Assembly: GCA_001790095.1 (NCBI GenBank)
Contig: MGBH01000001.1
Location: 300,001 to 332,000, forward strand
Source of the DNA: Candidatus Saccharimonadota bacterium
GTDB lineage: Bacteria > Patescibacteriota > Microgenomatia > UBA1406 > GWC2-37-13
Direction: 5' to 3'
Length of the DNA stretch: 32,000 nt
Shown here: positions 9,760 through 31,999 of the stretch, one piece after another
Numbering within the stretch: position 1 is the first letter of the stretch
How the letters are laid out: every line of letters begins with the position of its first letter
The notes under the pieces: generated by a model
Told to the model about the DNA's origin: nothing
Seen by the model: the letters and a program-made list of their open reading frames with translations, nothing else
Database searches by the model: none
Translations under genes and position numbers: made by a program

Positions 9760-10761
9760 CTATTTCCGGAACGACAGATAGAGCTCTCTTATAGTATGAG
9801 CTGCATTATACAGATGATAAAGAAAAGGGGAAATGACAAGGTCAAAGCTCCCCACCATCTCCACAAACTTTGTACCATATCCTTCTTTAAAACGGGTAAA
9901 ACCAGCCCATGAATGTTTTTCAGAATAGACGGGCGGCATTGAACCCCACATATCAAACTTTTTCGCGCCAAGTTTTTTACCCAGCAATATGGTGCGCCAC
10001 ATTAAGAGATTTGCAGCCATGAAGTTGCGGTAAAGAGGAGATGTTCCACCATAAGGATAATAAAATACACCGTTAAAATAAAAAAGCTCATACGCGGCAA
10101 GTGGTATATCTTTAAAATACGCAATCAAAATATGGGCAATATCATTACTTAAGCTATCCCATACTATCTTATGATAATGATAATTATGACCAAAATATTT
10201 TTGACGCTTACAGGTGGCAAAGTATAGTTTTTGGAAAACTTCAAAGCCTTCTTTATTTGACATTTCTTTGATCGCAATCCCTTTTTTCTGAGCGAGGCGG
10301 ATGTTATACCTTGTCTTTGGCTTCATTTGCTTTAAAAGATCATCTTCGGTCTTGGTTAAATCTAGCTCTTGAGTCCAAGAAGGAAAAAGTGGGTGAGGGG
10401 ACGGATATACTTTACTTTCTTTATCTATCCGATGTTGTGGATCGTTTTTCAAAACATAGGGTTCAAGCTTAACAAATATAAGACCTTCTTTTTTCCCAAA
10501 ATCCAGTAAAAAATGGACAACATCCTTAGAAAGGTTCGCTGATCTTGGAATATATCCAATTCTTAATCCAAAAGGAAGCAAATGGATAGTCATTTGAAAT
10601 GAATGACAAAGTTCTGTTCCGTCAAACTCACCAAATCTCAACACGCGGACTCCTGTTTTTTTTCGAGCTTCTCCCCACGCCCATGATTGAAGCGGATGAA
10701 CTGCCCTACTGTCAAAAAGATTTTTATTGAAATTATCCTCGATGATTTTCACTTTGTGCAT
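9760..10761 (-). CDS. FemAB-family peptidoglycan interpeptide-bridge aminoacyltransferase
   Basis: 333 aa with the FemAB-like N-terminus HPLQSWAWGEARKKTGVRVLRF and overall Fem/MurM-like length. It is the last gene of the minus-strand envelope operon. Confidence 0.75.
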   Translation of the reverse strand: MHKVKIIEDNFNKNLFDSRAVHPLQSWAWGEARKKTGVRVLRFGEFDGTELCHSFQMTIHLLPFGLRIGYIPRSANLSKDVVHFLLDFGKKEGLIFVKLEPYVLKNDPQHRIDKESKVYPSPHPLFPSWTQELDLTKTEDDLLKQMKPKTRYNIRLAQKKGIAIKEMSNKEGFEVFQKLYFATCKRQKYFGHNYHYHKIVWDSLSNDIAHILIAYFKDIPLAAYELFYFNGVFYYPYGGTSPLYRNFMAANLLMWRTILLGKKLGAKKFDMWGSMPPVYSEKHSWAGFTRFKEGYGTKFVEMVGSFDLVISPFLYHLYNAAHTIRELYLSFRK

Positions 10762-10780
10762 AAGACTATATTATAGTTTA

Positions 10781-22034: not shown

Positions 22035-22586
22035 ATGAAAGATCTGACGATAGATGACGTTATGGTAAAGGTAAAAAATGATATTTTTGTCCAAGATTAC
22101 TCAAAAAAGCAAGTTATTGAAGGAGTGAAGGTCCTCGAGGTTAAACGTATGGTGGGGGAGGACGGAACGTTTGAAGATTTATTGCACGTAAAGGAAGATG
22201 GGTTTTTTGAACTGTTTCCCGAGATTAAAATCCGACAGATAAATAGATCAAAGCTGCTCCCCGGCTCCATAAAAGCATGGCATCTACATTTCAAACAAGA
22301 AGATATATGGTATATTCCACCCGAAGATCACATGATCTTGGGATTATGGGATACGCGCGAAGCATCAATCACCAAAGACATTACTATGAAAATCGTGATG
22401 GGAAATGGATCATCAAGGGTTGTGCTCGTACCACGTGGGGTAGCACATGGGGTGGTCAACCTTGCTAAAACCCCTGGTAATATATTTTATTTTGTCAATA
22501 ATCAATACAACCCCACCGATCCTGACGAGCGGCGTCTTCCTTGGGATAAACTGGGCGCTAGTTTCTGGGAAATAGAAAAAGGATAA
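22035..22586 (+). CDS. RmlC-like cupin (dTDP-4-dehydrorhamnose 3,5-epimerase family)
   Basis: 183 aa. IEGVKVLEVKRMVGEDGTFEDLL, IKAWHLHFKQEDIWYIP and LVPRGVAHGVVNL match the RmlC-fold pattern. Confidence 0.7.
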   Translation: MKDLTIDDVMVKVKNDIFVQDYSKKQVIEGVKVLEVKRMVGEDGTFEDLLHVKEDGFFELFPEIKIRQINRSKLLPGSIKAWHLHFKQEDIWYIPPEDHMILGLWDTREASITKDITMKIVMGNGSSRVVLVPRGVAHGVVNLAKTPGNIFYFVNNQYNPTDPDERRLPWDKLGASFWEIEKG

Positions 22587-23255: not shown

Positions 23256-24695
23256 TTACACTATTTTTTTAAAGAATATCCGCCTATCTCTTTCAAACTC
23301 TCCACTCGTTCTTTTTTGTCTTACTTCCTGTTGCATTTCGCGGTCTTGATCAGTAACCTGAATAAACCCAAGTTTTTTGTAAAGTCTTTGTGAGGCCGTA
23401 TTACTTTCTGAAGTACGCATAAGTACAGTTGTTCCTTTGGCAAAAGACTTTATGCGTTCTTTTACTAATACTTCAGCTATTGATTTTCTTCTCCATTCAC
23501 TAAGAACTCCAAGATCGGCCATATACTGTGTTGATTCAATGGGTATACCAAACTGTTTTGCAATTTCTGCAATCTCCTTTTTTTTCGAAAGAGGGACTGC
23601 AGCTCCAAATCCGATAAGGCCATTTTTATTTCTGGCAAAAAACAGTGTGCCGTCCTTTTGGTATTCGTTAAAATCCGTCGCCACTTCTTCGTAGGAAAAT
23701 ACTTCATCGTATGGAGGTCCTCCGAAGATAATATTGTATGCACTCAGGAGTTCTCCATTTTCCAGATATTGACCTAACTGTTGAGAGGTATATATTCTTT
23801 CAATAACGATAGGGCCATCATCAGTTTCAATTAATGTCCCCATATTTAATATTTCTACTAGTCCCTGTATTTGTGCATAATTGAACCGGGTTCCATCAAA
23901 GTTTATAGATACCTTAATAGTTTGCCCAGAAGGTTGAATAATAGGTTCCTCAATAATTGAATTTCCTGAATTTTTTGCAAGTACCATGCCGACGGCAGTT
24001 GTTCCGCTTCCACAAGCTGTTTCTAAAAATAGAGTATTACTATTTTTTACATAAACAACTGGAGTAATCTCTATTCCCTTTCGAGTTCGTTTAGCAAACA
24101 TTACGCCTGCAGCCGGTTCGGTATCAAGCCCATTTTTACGGATTATATCCATCCCAATTTTTTTTATTTCCTCTTCATCTTTGCCTTTAATTTGAGTTGT
24201 ATTCCAATCAACATACTGGGTTATGCCTTCCATATATACGAAGTTGTTTTCCGGATTTGAAGAGTCTATCTGTACTCTGTCAGGGTCAGAATAGATTGGC
24301 ATTTGAGCATATGATTCACCATCAGTGGTTACTCCTGCTATTAATGCGTCTTCTACTCCACCTGCTTTTATGCGTATTTGTCCTGGCATACCTTTGAGAG
24401 CAAGGTATGCGGCGCTTCTTGTGGCATTTCCGCAAAACTCACCTCCAGCCATCATAAGTTCCGTGCTGTTAGGCTTAAAGTCAACAAATCCCACCTGTTC
24501 TATTTGATTTGGAGATCCAGATGGATATAAAGACATTATTTCATCATTAATTTTTATTCGTTCAAACGGATCTTTTACGATACCCATTATTAATGACGTA
24601 TCATTACCGCCTGGGCGCATATTAATGAAGCGGTATTGGTTATTTGAACTCGCTAATTCTTTTGGTTTTAATTGTGGTTCCATAATTTTTTTCAT
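23256..24695 (-). CDS. Fusion protein: DapF/CntK-like PLP-independent two-cysteine amino-acid racemase/epimerase (N) + GNAT N-acetyltransferase (C)
   Basis: N-terminal ~300 aa: RPGGNDTSLIMG, EQVGFVDF, AGGEFCGNATRSAAYLA (first catalytic Cys context) and ETACGSGTTAVGMVLA (second Cys context). C-terminal ~170 aa: ADLGVLSEWRRKSIAEVLV (motif A-like) and ASQRLYKKLGFIQV (the classic GNAT ...lYek.GF ending). Confidence 0.6.
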   Translation of the reverse strand: MKKIMEPQLKPKELASSNNQYRFINMRPGGNDTSLIMGIVKDPFERIKINDEIMSLYPSGSPNQIEQVGFVDFKPNSTELMMAGGEFCGNATRSAAYLALKGMPGQIRIKAGGVEDALIAGVTTDGESYAQMPIYSDPDRVQIDSSNPENNFVYMEGITQYVDWNTTQIKGKDEEEIKKIGMDIIRKNGLDTEPAAGVMFAKRTRKGIEITPVVYVKNSNTLFLETACGSGTTAVGMVLAKNSGNSIIEEPIIQPSGQTIKVSINFDGTRFNYAQIQGLVEILNMGTLIETDDGPIVIERIYTSQQLGQYLENGELLSAYNIIFGGPPYDEVFSYEEVATDFNEYQKDGTLFFARNKNGLIGFGAAVPLSKKKEIAEIAKQFGIPIESTQYMADLGVLSEWRRKSIAEVLVKERIKSFAKGTTVLMRTSESNTASQRLYKKLGFIQVTDQDREMQQEVRQKRTSGEFERDRRIFFKKIV

Positions 24696-24728
24696 AGAAT
24701 TACTAAATACTAAAATCAGGCAGGATAT

Positions 24729-24754
24729 AAAAAACCCCGCCTTTAAGCGGGGTT
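24729..24754 (-). terminator. Intrinsic terminator hairpin in the 5' leader of the racemase-GNAT operon
   Basis: Minus-strand RNA reads AACCCCGC-UUAAAG-GCGGGG-UUUUUU. It has a 6-bp all-GC stem (extendable by A-U pairs), a 6-nt loop and a U6 tract. It ends 33 nt upstream of ATG 24695. Confidence 0.6.
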
Positions 24755-24775
24755 AATGAAGTGAGACCAAACAAA

Positions 24776-24841
24776 TTACCCCGCAACAAGCGGGTGATGA
24801 TGGAGAATATCAGTTATAAAATTATAAAGTTTAAAGTCCAT
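24776..24841 (-). CDS. Candidate 21-aa leader peptide MDFKLYNFITDILHHHPLVAG
   Basis: Hand-translated: ATG GAC TTT AAA CTT TAT AAT TTT ATA ACT GAT ATT CTC CAT CAT CAC CCG CTT GTT GCG GGG TAA. The ATG lies 14 nt after the predicted -10. The three His codons abut the first GC-rich hairpin arm, and the stop codon directly follows the second arm. Confidence 0.35.
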   Translation of the reverse strand: MDFKLYNFITDILHHHPLVAG

Positions 24842-24850
24842 AAAGTTATA

Positions 24851-24870
24851 TTAGTATATTACCATACTAA
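24851..24870. promoter_or_regulatory. Inverted repeat TTAGTAT-N6-ATACTAA (candidate operator)
   Basis: It has perfect 7-bp arms and overlaps the -10 and spacer of the minus-strand promoter. Further (A)TACTAA copies occur at 24701-24706 and 24707-24713. It is adjacent to the TrpR-like yerC-family gene. Confidence 0.35.
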
Positions 24871-24884
24871 TACATCATTGTCAA
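24856..24884 (-). promoter_or_regulatory. Candidate sigma70-type promoter of the leader and racemase-GNAT operon
   Basis: On the minus strand: TTGACA (24884-24879), a 17-nt spacer ending TGG (extended -10), then TAATAT (24861-24856). Confidence 0.5.
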
Positions 24885-24906
24885 GAGAGACTTATCATGT
24901 TACAAT
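24878..24906 (+). promoter_or_regulatory. Candidate sigma70-type promoter of the yerC-like gene
   Basis: TTGTCA (24878-24883), a 17-nt spacer ending TGT (extended -10), then TACAAT (24901-24906). The ATG at 24913 is 6 nt after the -10, so the mRNA would be leaderless. The -35 overlaps the minus-strand -35 by 5 of 6 bp. Confidence 0.5.
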
Positions 24907-24912
24907 GTTTGT

Positions 24913-25230
24913 ATGAAAAAGATGAAAGACAATTTTTCAAAACCTACTCCCTATAAACCCGCAAATGCTAAAGAAAAAAGATTAATGAAGATCCTTGCTT
25001 TACTTAACAACGAGCAGGATGTAGCAAACTTGTTTCGAGACCTGCTAACACATTCTGAAATTGAAGAATTTGCCAATAGAATAGAGATACTTAGATTGCT
25101 CAAAAAAGGATTTTCCTATCAAAAAATCGCGCATGAAATTGGTTCCTCAACAACTACTGTTACACGGGTTGCTCATTGGCTATACCATGGGTCAGGTGGA
25201 TATCAAAAAATCATTGACTTTCTTGACTGA
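24913..25230 (+). CDS. TrpR-related YerC/YecD-family DNA-binding protein
   Basis: 105 aa. ILALLNNEQDVANLFRDLLTHSEIEEFANRIEILRLLKKGFSYQKIAHEIGSSTTTVTRVAHWLYHGSGGY aligns by eye along the whole length of B. subtilis YerC (..FFEDICTINEL..SQRFEVAKML...TYLDISEKTGASTATISRVNRSLNYGNDGY). Confidence 0.85.
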   Translation: MKKMKDNFSKPTPYKPANAKEKRLMKILALLNNEQDVANLFRDLLTHSEIEEFANRIEILRLLKKGFSYQKIAHEIGSSTTTVTRVAHWLYHGSGGYQKIIDFLD

Positions 25231-29915: not shown

Positions 29916-31436
29916 TTATTTTTCATAGGAAAAGGAAGAATATTTATTTGTAATCCCAATTTTTTCCCTTACCTCCATCATTTTCTTTGATGCCTGTAAT
30001 CGGGCTTTTGCAGCACCTGATTGTAATATCATTTTTATTCTTTCGGGATTTGTTTTCAATTGGCTATATAATTCTCGTTCTTTTTTAAACTTTGTAAGTA
30101 TTGCTTGAAAAAGTTTTTCTTTTACTTCTACATCTGCCACCGTTCCTTTTTCATATCTATTTTCAAGATCTTTAACTTCTTTTTTGTCATCGTTAAGCAA
30201 GCGATGATAAGTGAATATTGGGTTACCGTCAACTCGTCCAGGATCTGTCGCTTTAATACGATTTGGGTCAGTAAAGCAACTCATGACTTGTTTACGAATT
30301 ATTTTTTCCTCAGCAAAAACAGCGATGTAATTATTCAAACTTTTACTCATCTTGCGCTTGCCATCAGTACCAATCAAACGAGCACTTTCCTTCATATTAA
30401 AGATGTCAGGAAGGTTAAATGTTTTCCCATATGTTTTGTTGAAAAATCCTCCAACATCTCTTGTGATTTCAATATGTTGTTTCTGATCGTCTCCAACAGG
30501 CACATAGTCAGGGTCATACAAAAGAATGTCTGCGGCCATAAGGATGGGGTAACTGAAAAGTCCCATATTTATATCTTCCGGATTGGTTCCTTTTTGGAGT
30601 TTGTCTTTATACGCGTGTGCACGCTTGATAAGAGAAAGTGGAGTAATATTGTTTAAAATACTTTGTAGTTCAGTGTGCTGGGGTATGTCAGATTGTCGAT
30701 AAAAAACTACTTTGTTTGTATCAATCCCAAATGCTAAATAAGACAACACAAGATTTTCAACGTTTCGTTGCATTTCATCTCTTTTTTGTATGGTTGTGAG
30801 AGCATGAAGATCAGCGATAAAAAAATACACCTTATCAGCTTGCTTTTGCAATTCCAAGAATGGAACTACGGCTCCTAGATAGTTACCTATGTGTACTTCC
30901 CCGCTTCCTGATGGAGTAATGCCAGTTAAAATTGAGTAATGAGATTTAAGTATAGAATCAGAAGCTGATTTGATGAATCCAACATCCACTATGGTCGAAT
31001 TTGGCAGATTGATGAGATCTGATGTTTTATAGTTAATACTTGAAGTAAAGCTTCCTGAACCTGCCTGAACATATTTTTTTTCAAATATTTTTTTATCAAG
31101 AAATGTTTTTACGACTTGAGGTATATAAATACGCGCACTTCCAGGCTCAAGTCCTGTAAGAGAAGAAAACTCTTTATTGGTTGCCATAGTTAATAAAGTG
31201 GTTTTGGCAGCTTTTTTAAGTTTCTCCAAGTTTACTTTGCAATCATCTCTTCTAATAACAGCGATATATCCATAATCAACTTTAAAGATCAACGTTGAAG
31301 CTCCATTTTCAAAGGTAAGCTTGCAGTAATTGAGAACATCCTCAACTTCTTTAAAATATGGGTGTTCAACCACATAGTGATCGACATTCAGTTCCTTGAG
31401 CTTGTTTGAGTATTCTTTTACGTTTAGTTCTATCAT
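29916..31436 (-). CDS. trpS: Tryptophanyl-tRNA synthetase with N-terminal YbaK/ProX-like (aminoacyl-tRNA deacylase-type) domain
   Basis: The C-terminal ~335 aa is class I TrpRS: ITPSGSGEVHIGNYLGAV (HIGH-type), GDDQKQHIEITRDV and KMSKS. The N-terminal ~165 aa (..ASTLIFKV..VNLEKLKKAAKTTLLTMATNKEFSSLTGLEPGSARIYIP..YVQAGSGSFTSSINYKTSDL) resembles YbaK/EbsC-type editing domains. Confidence 0.8.
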   Translation of the reverse strand: MIELNVKEYSNKLKELNVDHYVVEHPYFKEVEDVLNYCKLTFENGASTLIFKVDYGYIAVIRRDDCKVNLEKLKKAAKTTLLTMATNKEFSSLTGLEPGSARIYIPQVVKTFLDKKIFEKKYVQAGSGSFTSSINYKTSDLINLPNSTIVDVGFIKSASDSILKSHYSILTGITPSGSGEVHIGNYLGAVVPFLELQKQADKVYFFIADLHALTTIQKRDEMQRNVENLVLSYLAFGIDTNKVVFYRQSDIPQHTELQSILNNITPLSLIKRAHAYKDKLQKGTNPEDINMGLFSYPILMAADILLYDPDYVPVGDDQKQHIEITRDVGGFFNKTYGKTFNLPDIFNMKESARLIGTDGKRKMSKSLNNYIAVFAEEKIIRKQVMSCFTDPNRIKATDPGRVDGNPIFTYHRLLNDDKKEVKDLENRYEKGTVADVEVKEKLFQAILTKFKKERELYSQLKTNPERIKMILQSGAAKARLQASKKMMEVREKIGITNKYSSFSYEK

Positions 31437-31456
31437 ATAATTGATTATACAAAAAT

Positions 31457-31999
31457 TTATAAATCTTGTAATATGTCAGGTCGTGGAGGGCCCGCAAAAA
31501 TCATTGCGTCCCCCCTCGCATAATCGACATCAGTTATGGCACATGGTGCAAATGCTTCTATATCACCATATAAGCAGTTATGCCCATATCTGCCCCTATC
31601 CACATCACCTAATTGATTACCCGTGTTGATAAAAACACCAAGACGGACAGCATCATCAATATTTAAATCTGCCACCTTTAGACCCAATCTCTTCATTTTT
31701 TCAGACTGGGTATGAAAAGCGATAAAATCAGGGCGTGTTTCTTGTACCTCTTTTTTTAGGAGATGAAAGCCAAGTCCAGGAAAGCCGGGATCGCATATAA
31801 TACCTTCTACATGCAGGATTTTTTCATGTAAATCAGACCCTCGAATAGTTGTAGCTAAGAATCCCGTTGCACACTCATCCATCATCGCAACGGTTAAGCG
31901 TTGACAACCAAACACATGATCTGCTACGTCTTTTCGTAATCCCTCGGTAACTTCATTTCTTAAGAAACCAACTGCTGTTAATCTCGATAGTGATTCCAA
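31457..31999 (-). CDS. Partial CDS (N-terminus beyond the window), function unknown, possibly GNAT-like
   Basis: The ORF is open to the window edge, and the apparent start is only a TTG at the edge. ICDPGFPGLGFHLLKKEV and FHTQSEKMKRLGLKV weakly resemble GNAT motifs A and B. It is visibly richer in G+C than its neighbours. Confidence 0.35.
   Translation of the reverse strand: MESLSRLTAVGFLRNEVTEGLRKDVADHVFGCQRLTVAMMDECATGFLATTIRGSDLHEKILHVEGIICDPGFPGLGFHLLKKEVQETRPDFIAFHTQSEKMKRLGLKVADLNIDDAVRLGVFINTGNQLGDVDRGRYGHNCLYGDIEAFAPCAITDVDYARGDAMIFAGPPRPDILQDL

Follow-up and report, generated by a model that had tools for sequence, protein, structure and literature searches.

The locus considered here raises the question of why a run of three histidine codons and four short GC-rich segments stand directly in front of a gene that, judged by its sequence, belongs to a histidine racemase family. 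It lies in a window of 32,000 nt, by which we mean the whole stretch of DNA that was analysed (contig MGBH01000001.1 of a Candidatus Saccharimonadota bacterium, Patescibacteriota, positions 300,001 to 332,000 of the forward strand), and occupies the 217-bp gap (24696-24912) between a racemase-GNAT gene on the minus strand and a divergent hisR-like gene. The host is a Roizmanbacteria-like member of the Microgenomates. An earlier note on this DNA had described the gap as a leader-peptide attenuator, and when the locus was reread on the minus strand, the coordinates given there for the promoter, the small open reading frame (ORF), the His codons, the four segments (seg1 to seg4) and the tract of six U (U6) all matched. 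We consider it likely that the window leader is a His-responsive, ribosome-mediated transcription attenuator of the operon comprising the racemase-GNAT gene and an M15 peptidase gene. This reading, which is also that of the earlier note, has strong comparative support in the recurrence of His runs in front of related genes, the co-variation of seg2 with seg3 and the conservation in close relatives, and it agrees with folds of the nascent transcript with ribosome masks.

On the minus strand, the leader promoter consists of the -35 hexamer TTGACA (24884-24879) and, after a spacer of 17 nt, the extended -10 element TGgTAATAT (24864-24856) with its hexamer TAATAT at 24861-24856; in the promoter scan, which judges by consensus match alone, it showed 10 of 12 consensus matches and the TG of an extended -10. 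The leader ORF downstream (24841-24776) comprises 21 codons and a stop codon and encodes the peptide MDFKLYNFITDILHHHPLVAG, the C-terminal part of which reads HHHPLVAG up to the stop. Its three consecutive His codons CAT CAT CAC (24802-24794) are the proposed sensor of the His-tRNA supply. Inside the third of them begins seg1 (CCCGC, 24794-24790), the 5' arm of a putative anti-antiterminator, followed by seg2 (GCGGGG at 24784-24779, or 24784-24778 with a further U), which can pair with either seg1 or seg3 and abuts or overlaps the TAA at 24778-24776. The third segment (CCCCGC at 24752-24747, or 24753-24747 with a preceding A) would serve both as 3' arm of the antiterminator and as 5' arm of the terminator, the 3' arm of which is seg4 (GCGGGG, 24740-24735) with the U6 tract at 24734-24729. 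The predicted intrinsic terminator as a whole, AACCCCGCU-UAAA-GGCGGGGUU (24754-24729), comprises 9 pairs including 6 G-C, the last two U of its stem being the first two of the U6 tract, and 33 nt separate this tract from the ATG at 24695.

All three pairings proposed for these segments are possible in the sequence, namely the 3:4 terminator with U6, the perfect 2:3 alternative, which the repeat search extended to 7 nt (24784-24778 with 24747-24753), and a 1:2 hairpin of 5 bp. The same search found the terminator stem to be perfect over 8 nt. Within the whole 32-kb window, the 3:4 hairpin with U6 is the top-ranked terminator-like site, and the leader folds with a z-score of -3.2, none of 200 shuffles folding as well. 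An assignment of the terminator to an upstream gene was ruled out, since the neighbouring gene is divergent.

The His run of the window is not an isolated case. From 165 fetched loci encoding racemase homologs, 143 non-redundant upstream regions of 350 nt were scanned for runs of His codons, and runs of at least three were found in 21 of the 143 regions compared to 0.98 +- 0.92 in shuffles (maximum 4). The controls yielded 2 runs of this length in 129 far-upstream regions and 6 in 143 regions on the reverse strand. This corresponds to a roughly 20-fold enrichment upstream of the homologs. Leaders with His runs and terminators recur at homologs of 30-55% protein identity in several phyla of the Candidate Phyla Radiation (CPR) and in Clostridia, and 24 of them were annotated, each with a terminator after the leader and the racemase gene after the terminator.

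Two types of leader can be distinguished. Type A comprises free-standing leader ORFs such as MLINIALYQNNHHHHAISEVI (L010), MIFSQNNHHHHAISGVI (L097), ...SSYHHHNFI (L009) and MTFRFTQNHHHEPA (L101), as well as a tightly conserved Clostridial family of the form MKLxIFLNxLHHHRRSL. In type B, a co-directional hisR gene lies upstream and carries the His run in its own C-terminal tail, in frame in all 10 of 10 cases, with tails ending before the stop codon in ...NHHHLAHAG (L088), ...KRHHHTSLVAV (L008) or ...NSHHHTRTNSLEFTS (L042). The repressor ORF in these loci appears to double as the leader peptide of an attenuator. The window's HHHPLVAG and the HisR tail HHHLAHAG of L088 are of the same length and the same layout; beyond the His run, the leader peptides share no conserved sequence.

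Several further features were observed in these upstream regions. The Clostridial leaders, in which the stop codon follows directly on MKLxIFLNxLHHHRRSL, were located at L052 (2780-2985) and also at L030, L045, L046, L050, L058, L065 and L068. They contain long AT-rich alternative helices, the CntK-like genes behind them have no GNAT domain, and at L052 an M20 peptidase gene follows the CntK-like gene. The type B loci are L088 (around 1606-2013), L089, L096, L008, L006, L038, L042, L044, L054 and L078, where the His run of the HisR tail is followed by seg2, stop codon and terminator, and where several loci carry perfect HisR boxes at the hisR start. A different layout is seen in L003, L084 and L091 (Gottesmanbacteria L003 and similar) as well as in L009 and L095: an ORF with HH or HHH and a first hairpin, without a U-tract terminator, lies about 60-160 nt upstream of the gene, and a C/U-rich stretch with a hairpin stands beside a strong Shine-Dalgarno (SD) sequence AAGGAGG. 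From this layout, these leaders may act by translational rather than transcriptional attenuation. At L074, a promoter is followed by a hairpin and a U-tract, with no His ORF.

The pairing on which the proposed switch depends was evaluated in the 24 leaders by determining the best duplex of the stretch from His run to terminator with the terminator 5' arm, in comparison to cross-locus permutation. The native seg2:seg3 duplexes showed a mean of -12.86 kcal/mol compared to -8.15 +- 0.55 kcal/mol in the permutations, and 0 of 5000 permutations reached the native value. The stems vary by lineage and seg2 follows them, as in the pairs GCGGGGU/ACCCCGC, UCAGCGAGGUG/CAUCUCGCUGA, UGGCGGUG/CACCGCCG and UUUGGAGG/CCCUCCAAA. 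The seg1:seg2 pairing likewise lies above the permutations, with a weaker signal (33/5000). In the CPR leaders, seg2 begins 13-30 nt after the first His nucleotide, and in 13 of 19 of them the stop codon lies -6 to +15 nt from the seg2 3' end. With regard to compensatory stem changes, which had been named as a possible test of the attenuator, seg2:seg3 tracks the terminator stems across loci. As a column-wise test within the window and its two closest relatives such changes could not be used: in the MAFFT alignment of these three leaders, hairpin 1 of the window was placed wrongly, a set of three is too small to judge co-variation by column, and the cross-locus permutation of duplex energies took the place of the alignment.

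For the window, the calculated helix energies amount to -10.4 kcal/mol for 1:2, -10.5 kcal/mol for 2:3 and -12.4 to -15.5 kcal/mol for 3:4. At equilibrium, the full leader always folded into the terminator, whichever ribosome mask was applied; these folds were therefore non-discriminating and were replaced by folds of the nascent transcript, comprising the RNA outside the polymerase while the polymerase stands on the U-tract, with the ribosome footprint as an assumption. In these folds, a ribosome on any of the His codons leads to the 2:3 antiterminator, and a ribosome on the UAA masks seg2 and leaves seg3 free; the footprint modelled for a ribosome that stalls at the His codons includes seg1. 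In the folding check suggested by the earlier note, it is the nascent folds that discriminate, switching between 2:3 and a free seg3.

Scans of metagenomes and genomes revealed only two further lineages, L001 and L161, at about 71-72% protein identity, the next nearest homolog showing 55%. Both have kept the synteny, with a beta-propeller gene and the hisR-like gene followed by the divergent racemase-GNAT and M15 genes, and both keep the block of promoter and palindrome, the ORF in the His frame, the His run, hairpin 1 and the terminator. The comparison of orthologous regions, on which the attenuator reading could have failed, thus shows the small ORF, the His run and both hairpins retained. 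The leader peptides are MLMKTIIDIRTGFKPVPTNSIFHHPHTKRDNCMLD in L001 and MFNIVYLTRNPLTRNSLTGFLHHPHTKRAHCLLD in L161. Between the ATG and the His codons the DNA of the window, L001 and L161 is largely different, yet the frame stays open.

The small ORF of the window leader has no SD sequence. Since an SD motif was found in 0 of the 28 genes of the window, an SD-less small ORF is normal here, and its absence was dismissed as an argument against translation of the ORF. Several genes of the window show a TATAAT-like box 6-8 nt ahead of the start codon (e.g. 24901-24915, 31436-31460 and 10761-10780), which suggests, from sequence, that this genome makes wide use of leaderless mRNAs. The small ORF of L001 and L161 starts exactly 6 nt downstream of the -10 box TGGTACCAT, corresponding to a leaderless layout, and the leaderless position of its ATG is also found in L124. 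The window itself carries an 8-nt near-duplicate TAATATAA at 24853-24846 (minus strand) just after the -10 box of the leader, and because of this near-duplication its ATG comes to lie 14 nt past the best -10 box.

Altogether, the window leader shows at sequence level what characterises a His-type leader-peptide attenuator, i.e. an ORF with a codon run, a terminator, an exclusive antiterminator with co-variation, and a matching placement of codons and stop; we infer that the small ORF is translated, that the ribosome stalls, that transcription terminates and in which direction the operon responds. Transcription would begin at the TTGACA/TGgTAATAT promoter, and the 21-codon leader ORF would be translated from a very short or absent 5' untranslated region. 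When charged tRNA-His is scarce, the ribosome would stall on CAU-CAU-CAC and cover seg1, seg2 would pair with seg3 as the latter leaves the polymerase, no terminator would form, and the operon would be transcribed. With plentiful His-tRNA, the ribosome would reach the UAA abutting seg2 and mask this segment, so that seg3 would pair with seg4. If the leader is not translated, the 1:2 helix would form first and sequester seg2, and the seg3:seg4 hairpin would again result. In both of the latter situations, the 3:4 hairpin with U6 would end transcription 33 nt before the gene.

A number of observations weigh against this reading. The sensor of the window comprises three His codons only and its 1:2 helix only 5 bp, and since 14 nt separate the best -10 box from the ATG, the ORF is not strictly leaderless. 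The equilibrium fold of the full leader is the terminator even if the His-codon region is masked. Since the terminator is thus more stable than 2:3 at equilibrium, the antiterminator must win kinetically. The switch of E. coli trpL is kinetic as well. Moreover, without a ribosome the minimum free energy structure of the nascent transcript prefers 2:3 over 1:2, so that termination by default needs the 1:2 helix to form first. The stop codon of the L001 and L161 leaders is placed 17 nt past seg2, too far for a ribosome terminating on it to cover that segment. The sensors of some relatives are weak, with one His codon in L083 and the sequence H-P-T-S-H in L081, and neither a His leader nor a T-box nor an adjacent hisR could be recognised at the racemase-GNAT homologs L074, L085 and L090 (45-52% identity), so that this regulation is not universal in the family. 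Finally, the gene 3' ends of the window are without canonical terminators, and nothing there is comparable to the leader hairpin with U6.

The divergent hisR-like gene introduces a second possible level of control. A perfect 9+9 palindrome, TATTAGTAT-GGTAAT-ATACTAATA (24872-24849, extended arms 24842-24879), spans the -10 box and the likely transcription start of the leader; L001 and L161 retain part of it. Within the intergenic region, conservation is highest in the promoter/operator block, and the block TTGACAATG is kept in both relatives. For HisR, a 20-bp palindromic operator with the consensus ACTTTA-N6-TAAAGT has been published. In the window, this consensus was not found at up to 2 mismatches, and at 3 mismatches 27 matches were obtained compared to 38.5 expected, which does not exceed chance. 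Perfect HisR boxes mark the beginning of hisR in 9 CPR loci related to the window; the window's own lineage lacks them. Since the palindrome does not match the published box, we can only infer that it is a candidate operator of the divergent HisR-like repressor. As a separate observation, the 5' end of the leader ORF contains ACTTTA, which forms one half of the published box, three times in direct orientation over 25 nt (aACTTTAtggACTTTAaACTTTAtaa, 24822-24846, minus strand); this triple is not conserved in L001 or L161.

Other links to histidine were found at the homologs. Instead of a His leader, three loci carry T-box leaders, L087 (335-521, E = 5.8e-10), L011 (2645-2835, E = 4.3e-5) and L023 (2711-2915, E = 1.2e-3), all of them below the gathering score. 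They contain the core AGGAUGGGACCGCG and show the stem-I loop GUCACGA on three different stems, CAC being a His codon. These T-boxes have an ultrashort stem I, a 7-nt loop and co-varying stems. Since they score 49, 31 and 25 bits, respectively, and thus far below the Rfam gathering threshold of 93, a standard annotation would miss them. A tRNA-His(GTG) gene lies directly upstream of the racemase gene in L099 (5-81), L124 and L011. In L124 (1599-1795) it is preceded by the leaderless ORF MLNIVCNSNHHHTN, ending in a stop codon, by an 11-pair 2:3 helix and by a terminator; in L011 (2645-2963) it lies downstream of the His T-box. From these arrangements, the tRNA-His gene of L124 and L011 appears to be controlled by its own charging state. 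The association with His T-boxes, tRNA-His genes and a HisR-type repressor indicates, independently of the leaders, that the racemase family is controlled by histidine, and all three kinds of sensor, i.e. His leaders, T-boxes and HisR, predict an operon that is switched on at histidine limitation.

In view of the adjacent repressor gene, it could be argued that the HisR-like protein at the -10 palindrome is the sole histidine sensor, the His codons being incidental and the hairpins acting constitutively as a partial terminator, or else on the stability of the RNA. A divergent HisR-type gene with overlapping promoters, the perfect 9+9 palindrome over the -10 box, the perfect HisR boxes of related operons and the high conservation of the promoter/operator block would all be accounted for in this way. 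What such an explanation leaves aside is the roughly 20-fold enrichment of His runs, their position always in an open frame that ends near seg2, and the lineage-specific complementarity of seg2 and seg3; in addition, leaders exist without a nearby hisR (L010, L097 and the Clostridia loci). Sole control by the repressor is accordingly regarded as improbable, and control by HisR and attenuation are not mutually exclusive. Since a HisR-type repressor gene lies divergent to a target of the CntK/HisR family, the operon is probably under dual control as is E. coli trp, the attenuator being layered on repression by the divergent HisR-like protein.

The existence of tRNA-His-type T-boxes at the homologs L087, L011 and L023 also makes it conceivable that the window leader is read without translation, with an RNA-binding protein or, as at a T-box specifier, tRNA-His itself recognising the CAU/CAC run and thereby choosing between 2:3 and 3:4. 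In many leaders (e.g. L096 and L010), seg1 is overlapped or adjoined by the His codons, and the small ORF has no SD sequence. Against this, SD is absent from every gene of the window, and neither a T-box core nor any Rfam family at threshold was found in the window leader. Every His run shares its reading frame either with a start codon or with the HisR ORF that precedes it (10/10), stop codons cluster at seg2, and the ATG takes the leaderless position in L001, L161 and L124, all of which makes a translation-independent switch quite improbable. Even less probable, in our view, is a stand-alone gene for a small RNA or a small protein, followed by an operon with a promoter of its own. A strong promoter and a strong terminator do bound a unit of about 120 nt, and weak sub-threshold matches to small RNA families in Rfam were obtained, driven by the hairpin and the U-tract; yet the minus strand between 24729 and 24695 showed no promoter-like site, across phyla the unit is always followed directly by a CntK-family gene of the same orientation, the peptide outside the His run is not conserved, and a T-box replaces the unit in some lineages.

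The gene behind the leader (24695-23256, minus strand, alternative start at 24683) encodes a protein of 479 aa in which a CntK_N domain (PF26317) is fused to a GNAT acetyltransferase. Its best matches in the PDB are the histidine racemase of Fusobacterium nucleatum (9CR1, 6.6e-13) and S. aureus CntK (6JIS, 9e-10), and both catalytic-Cys motifs are invariant in 30 homologs. Racemases of this kind work without a cofactor and are characterised by a DapF-like fold with two catalytic cysteines. The first description of the N-domain as a histidine/diaminopimelate-type racemase can thereby be narrowed to the CntK/HisR histidine-racemase family, the substrate specificity being predicted. After a gap of 4 nt, the gene of an M15 peptidase resembling D-Ala-D-Ala dipeptidases follows (23251-22502, minus strand), and because of this short gap the two genes presumably form one operon. 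An M15 homolog adjoins the racemase gene in 65 of the fetched loci. The M15 ORF and a convergent ORF on the plus strand (22035-22586, dTDP-sugar-epimerase-like) overlap by 85 nt at their 3' ends (22502-22586), with no terminator-like structure between the two.

The divergent gene (24913-25230, plus strand) belongs to the TrpR family (Pfam Trp_repressor, 2.6e-19). Its promoter comprises TTGTCA (24878-24883), which overlaps the -35 hexamer of the leader promoter back to back, and TACAAT (24901-24906), and the ATG follows 6 nt after the latter, so that the mRNA would be leaderless. The comparison with known structures gave 1e-11 for 3KOR and 1.7e-9 for 3G1C, both of the YerC/HisR type, compared to around 3e-3 for true TrpR. 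YerC has been identified with HisR, a histidine repressor with histidine as co-repressor (PMC9413887). The label "yerC-like" in the earlier note is therefore kept and sharpened: by these matches, the gene is of the YerC/HisR histidine-repressor type.

When the whole window and the leader were searched against Rfam, with gathering thresholds and with E <= 10, all matches stayed below threshold and owed their scores to the terminator hairpin. The His_leader family (RF00514) did not match at E <= 10, Trp_leader (RF00513) reached 23.6 bits compared to a gathering score of 41, mostly from the terminator, and no T-box (RF00230) was matched in the window leader, which shows neither core nor stem I. 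Membership in a small RNA family was rejected, the matches in question being sub-threshold and hairpin-driven.

With the enterobacterial hisL leader (RF00514), the window leader shares a short ORF with consecutive His codons, exclusive helices ending in an intrinsic terminator, and the expected read-through at limiting His-tRNA. It differs in that there is no homology of sequence or structure, in that three His codons stand against seven in hisL, and in its minimal four-segment layout; furthermore, its small ORF is SD-less and near-leaderless, its host belongs to the CPR, and its target is a racemase-GNAT/peptidase operon and not histidine biosynthesis. In E. coli hisL, Pro follows the His codons. 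E. coli trp shows the same four-segment geometry, an antiterminator weaker than the terminator, a stop codon at which the terminating ribosome masks segment 2, and the combination of a TrpR-family repressor at the promoter with a leader attenuator. In contrast to trp, the window leader would sense His and not Trp, and the repressor is of the HisR/YerC type and encoded divergently beside the target.

Further close parallels come from Firmicutes, for which Ashniev et al. 2022 (PMC9413887) proposed candidate His attenuators in the B. cereus group, Peptostreptococcaceae and Erysipelotrichales by comparative genomics only. Their leaders encode 3-5 His in a row, directly followed by the attenuator, antiterminator and terminator helices, and precede operons of his biosynthesis or transport; the search for attenuators had been restricted to his genes that were not yet attributed to HisR or a different known RNA motif (PMC9413887). 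The window leader, with three His codons, falls into this range and is likewise predicted by comparative genomics only, but its target is a gene of the histidine-racemase family, a HisR-type gene lies adjacent, and its host belongs to Patescibacteria, a phylum not covered in that study. His T-boxes, which occur at the same gene family in L087, L011 and L023, also sense the charging of tRNA-His by a terminator/antiterminator switch, whereas the window leader would do so via the translating ribosome and not by direct tRNA binding.

The earlier note had held leader-peptide attenuation to be undocumented for an operon of this kind, and in the limited corpus searched no paper was found that ties histidine racemases or CPR bacteria to leader-peptide attenuation. 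The predicted mechanism itself is that of a classical leader-peptide attenuator. New, if the prediction is correct, are the phylum, the SD-less and near-leaderless leader, the non-biosynthetic target, the pairing with HisR and the HisR-tail variant in related genomes.

Outside staphylopine synthesis, the physiological role of histidine racemases has been stated to be unclear (PMC11602996). Since racemases are reversible, peptidases accompany them (M15 in the CPR operons, M20 in a Clostridial one) and induction is predicted at histidine limitation, the present data suggest that the racemase operon serves the salvage of L-His from D-His or from His-containing peptides. A wider interpretation, which we put forward tentatively and at somewhat less than even chance, would combine these findings. 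Patescibacteria, expected to be histidine auxotrophs, and some Clostridia would run a histidine-starvation regulon in which a CntK-type racemase and a peptidase (M15 in CPR, M20 in Clostridia) provide L-His by salvage, and which is switched interchangeably by His leaders, His T-boxes and HisR. The C-terminal tail of HisR would function as a leader peptide, a previously undescribed arrangement, tRNA-His genes would stand behind His attenuators and T-boxes, and the window's HHHPLVAG ORF would be a relic of a HisR tail such as HHHLAHAG in L088.

Gene regulation in CPR bacteria is almost unexplored. If the attenuator reading is true, sensing by coupled transcription and translation works in tiny genomes without SD sequences, and the two-layer logic of E. 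coli trp, with a repressor and an attenuator, has been rebuilt for histidine. The three independent histidine sensors, i.e. leaders with His codons, T-boxes with a CAC specifier and HisR boxes, place the CntK/HisR-type racemases in the response to histidine limitation, and L-His salvage would represent a testable physiological role for this enzyme family beyond staphylopine synthesis. A control mechanism known from textbooks would thereby be extended to the little-known Patescibacteria.

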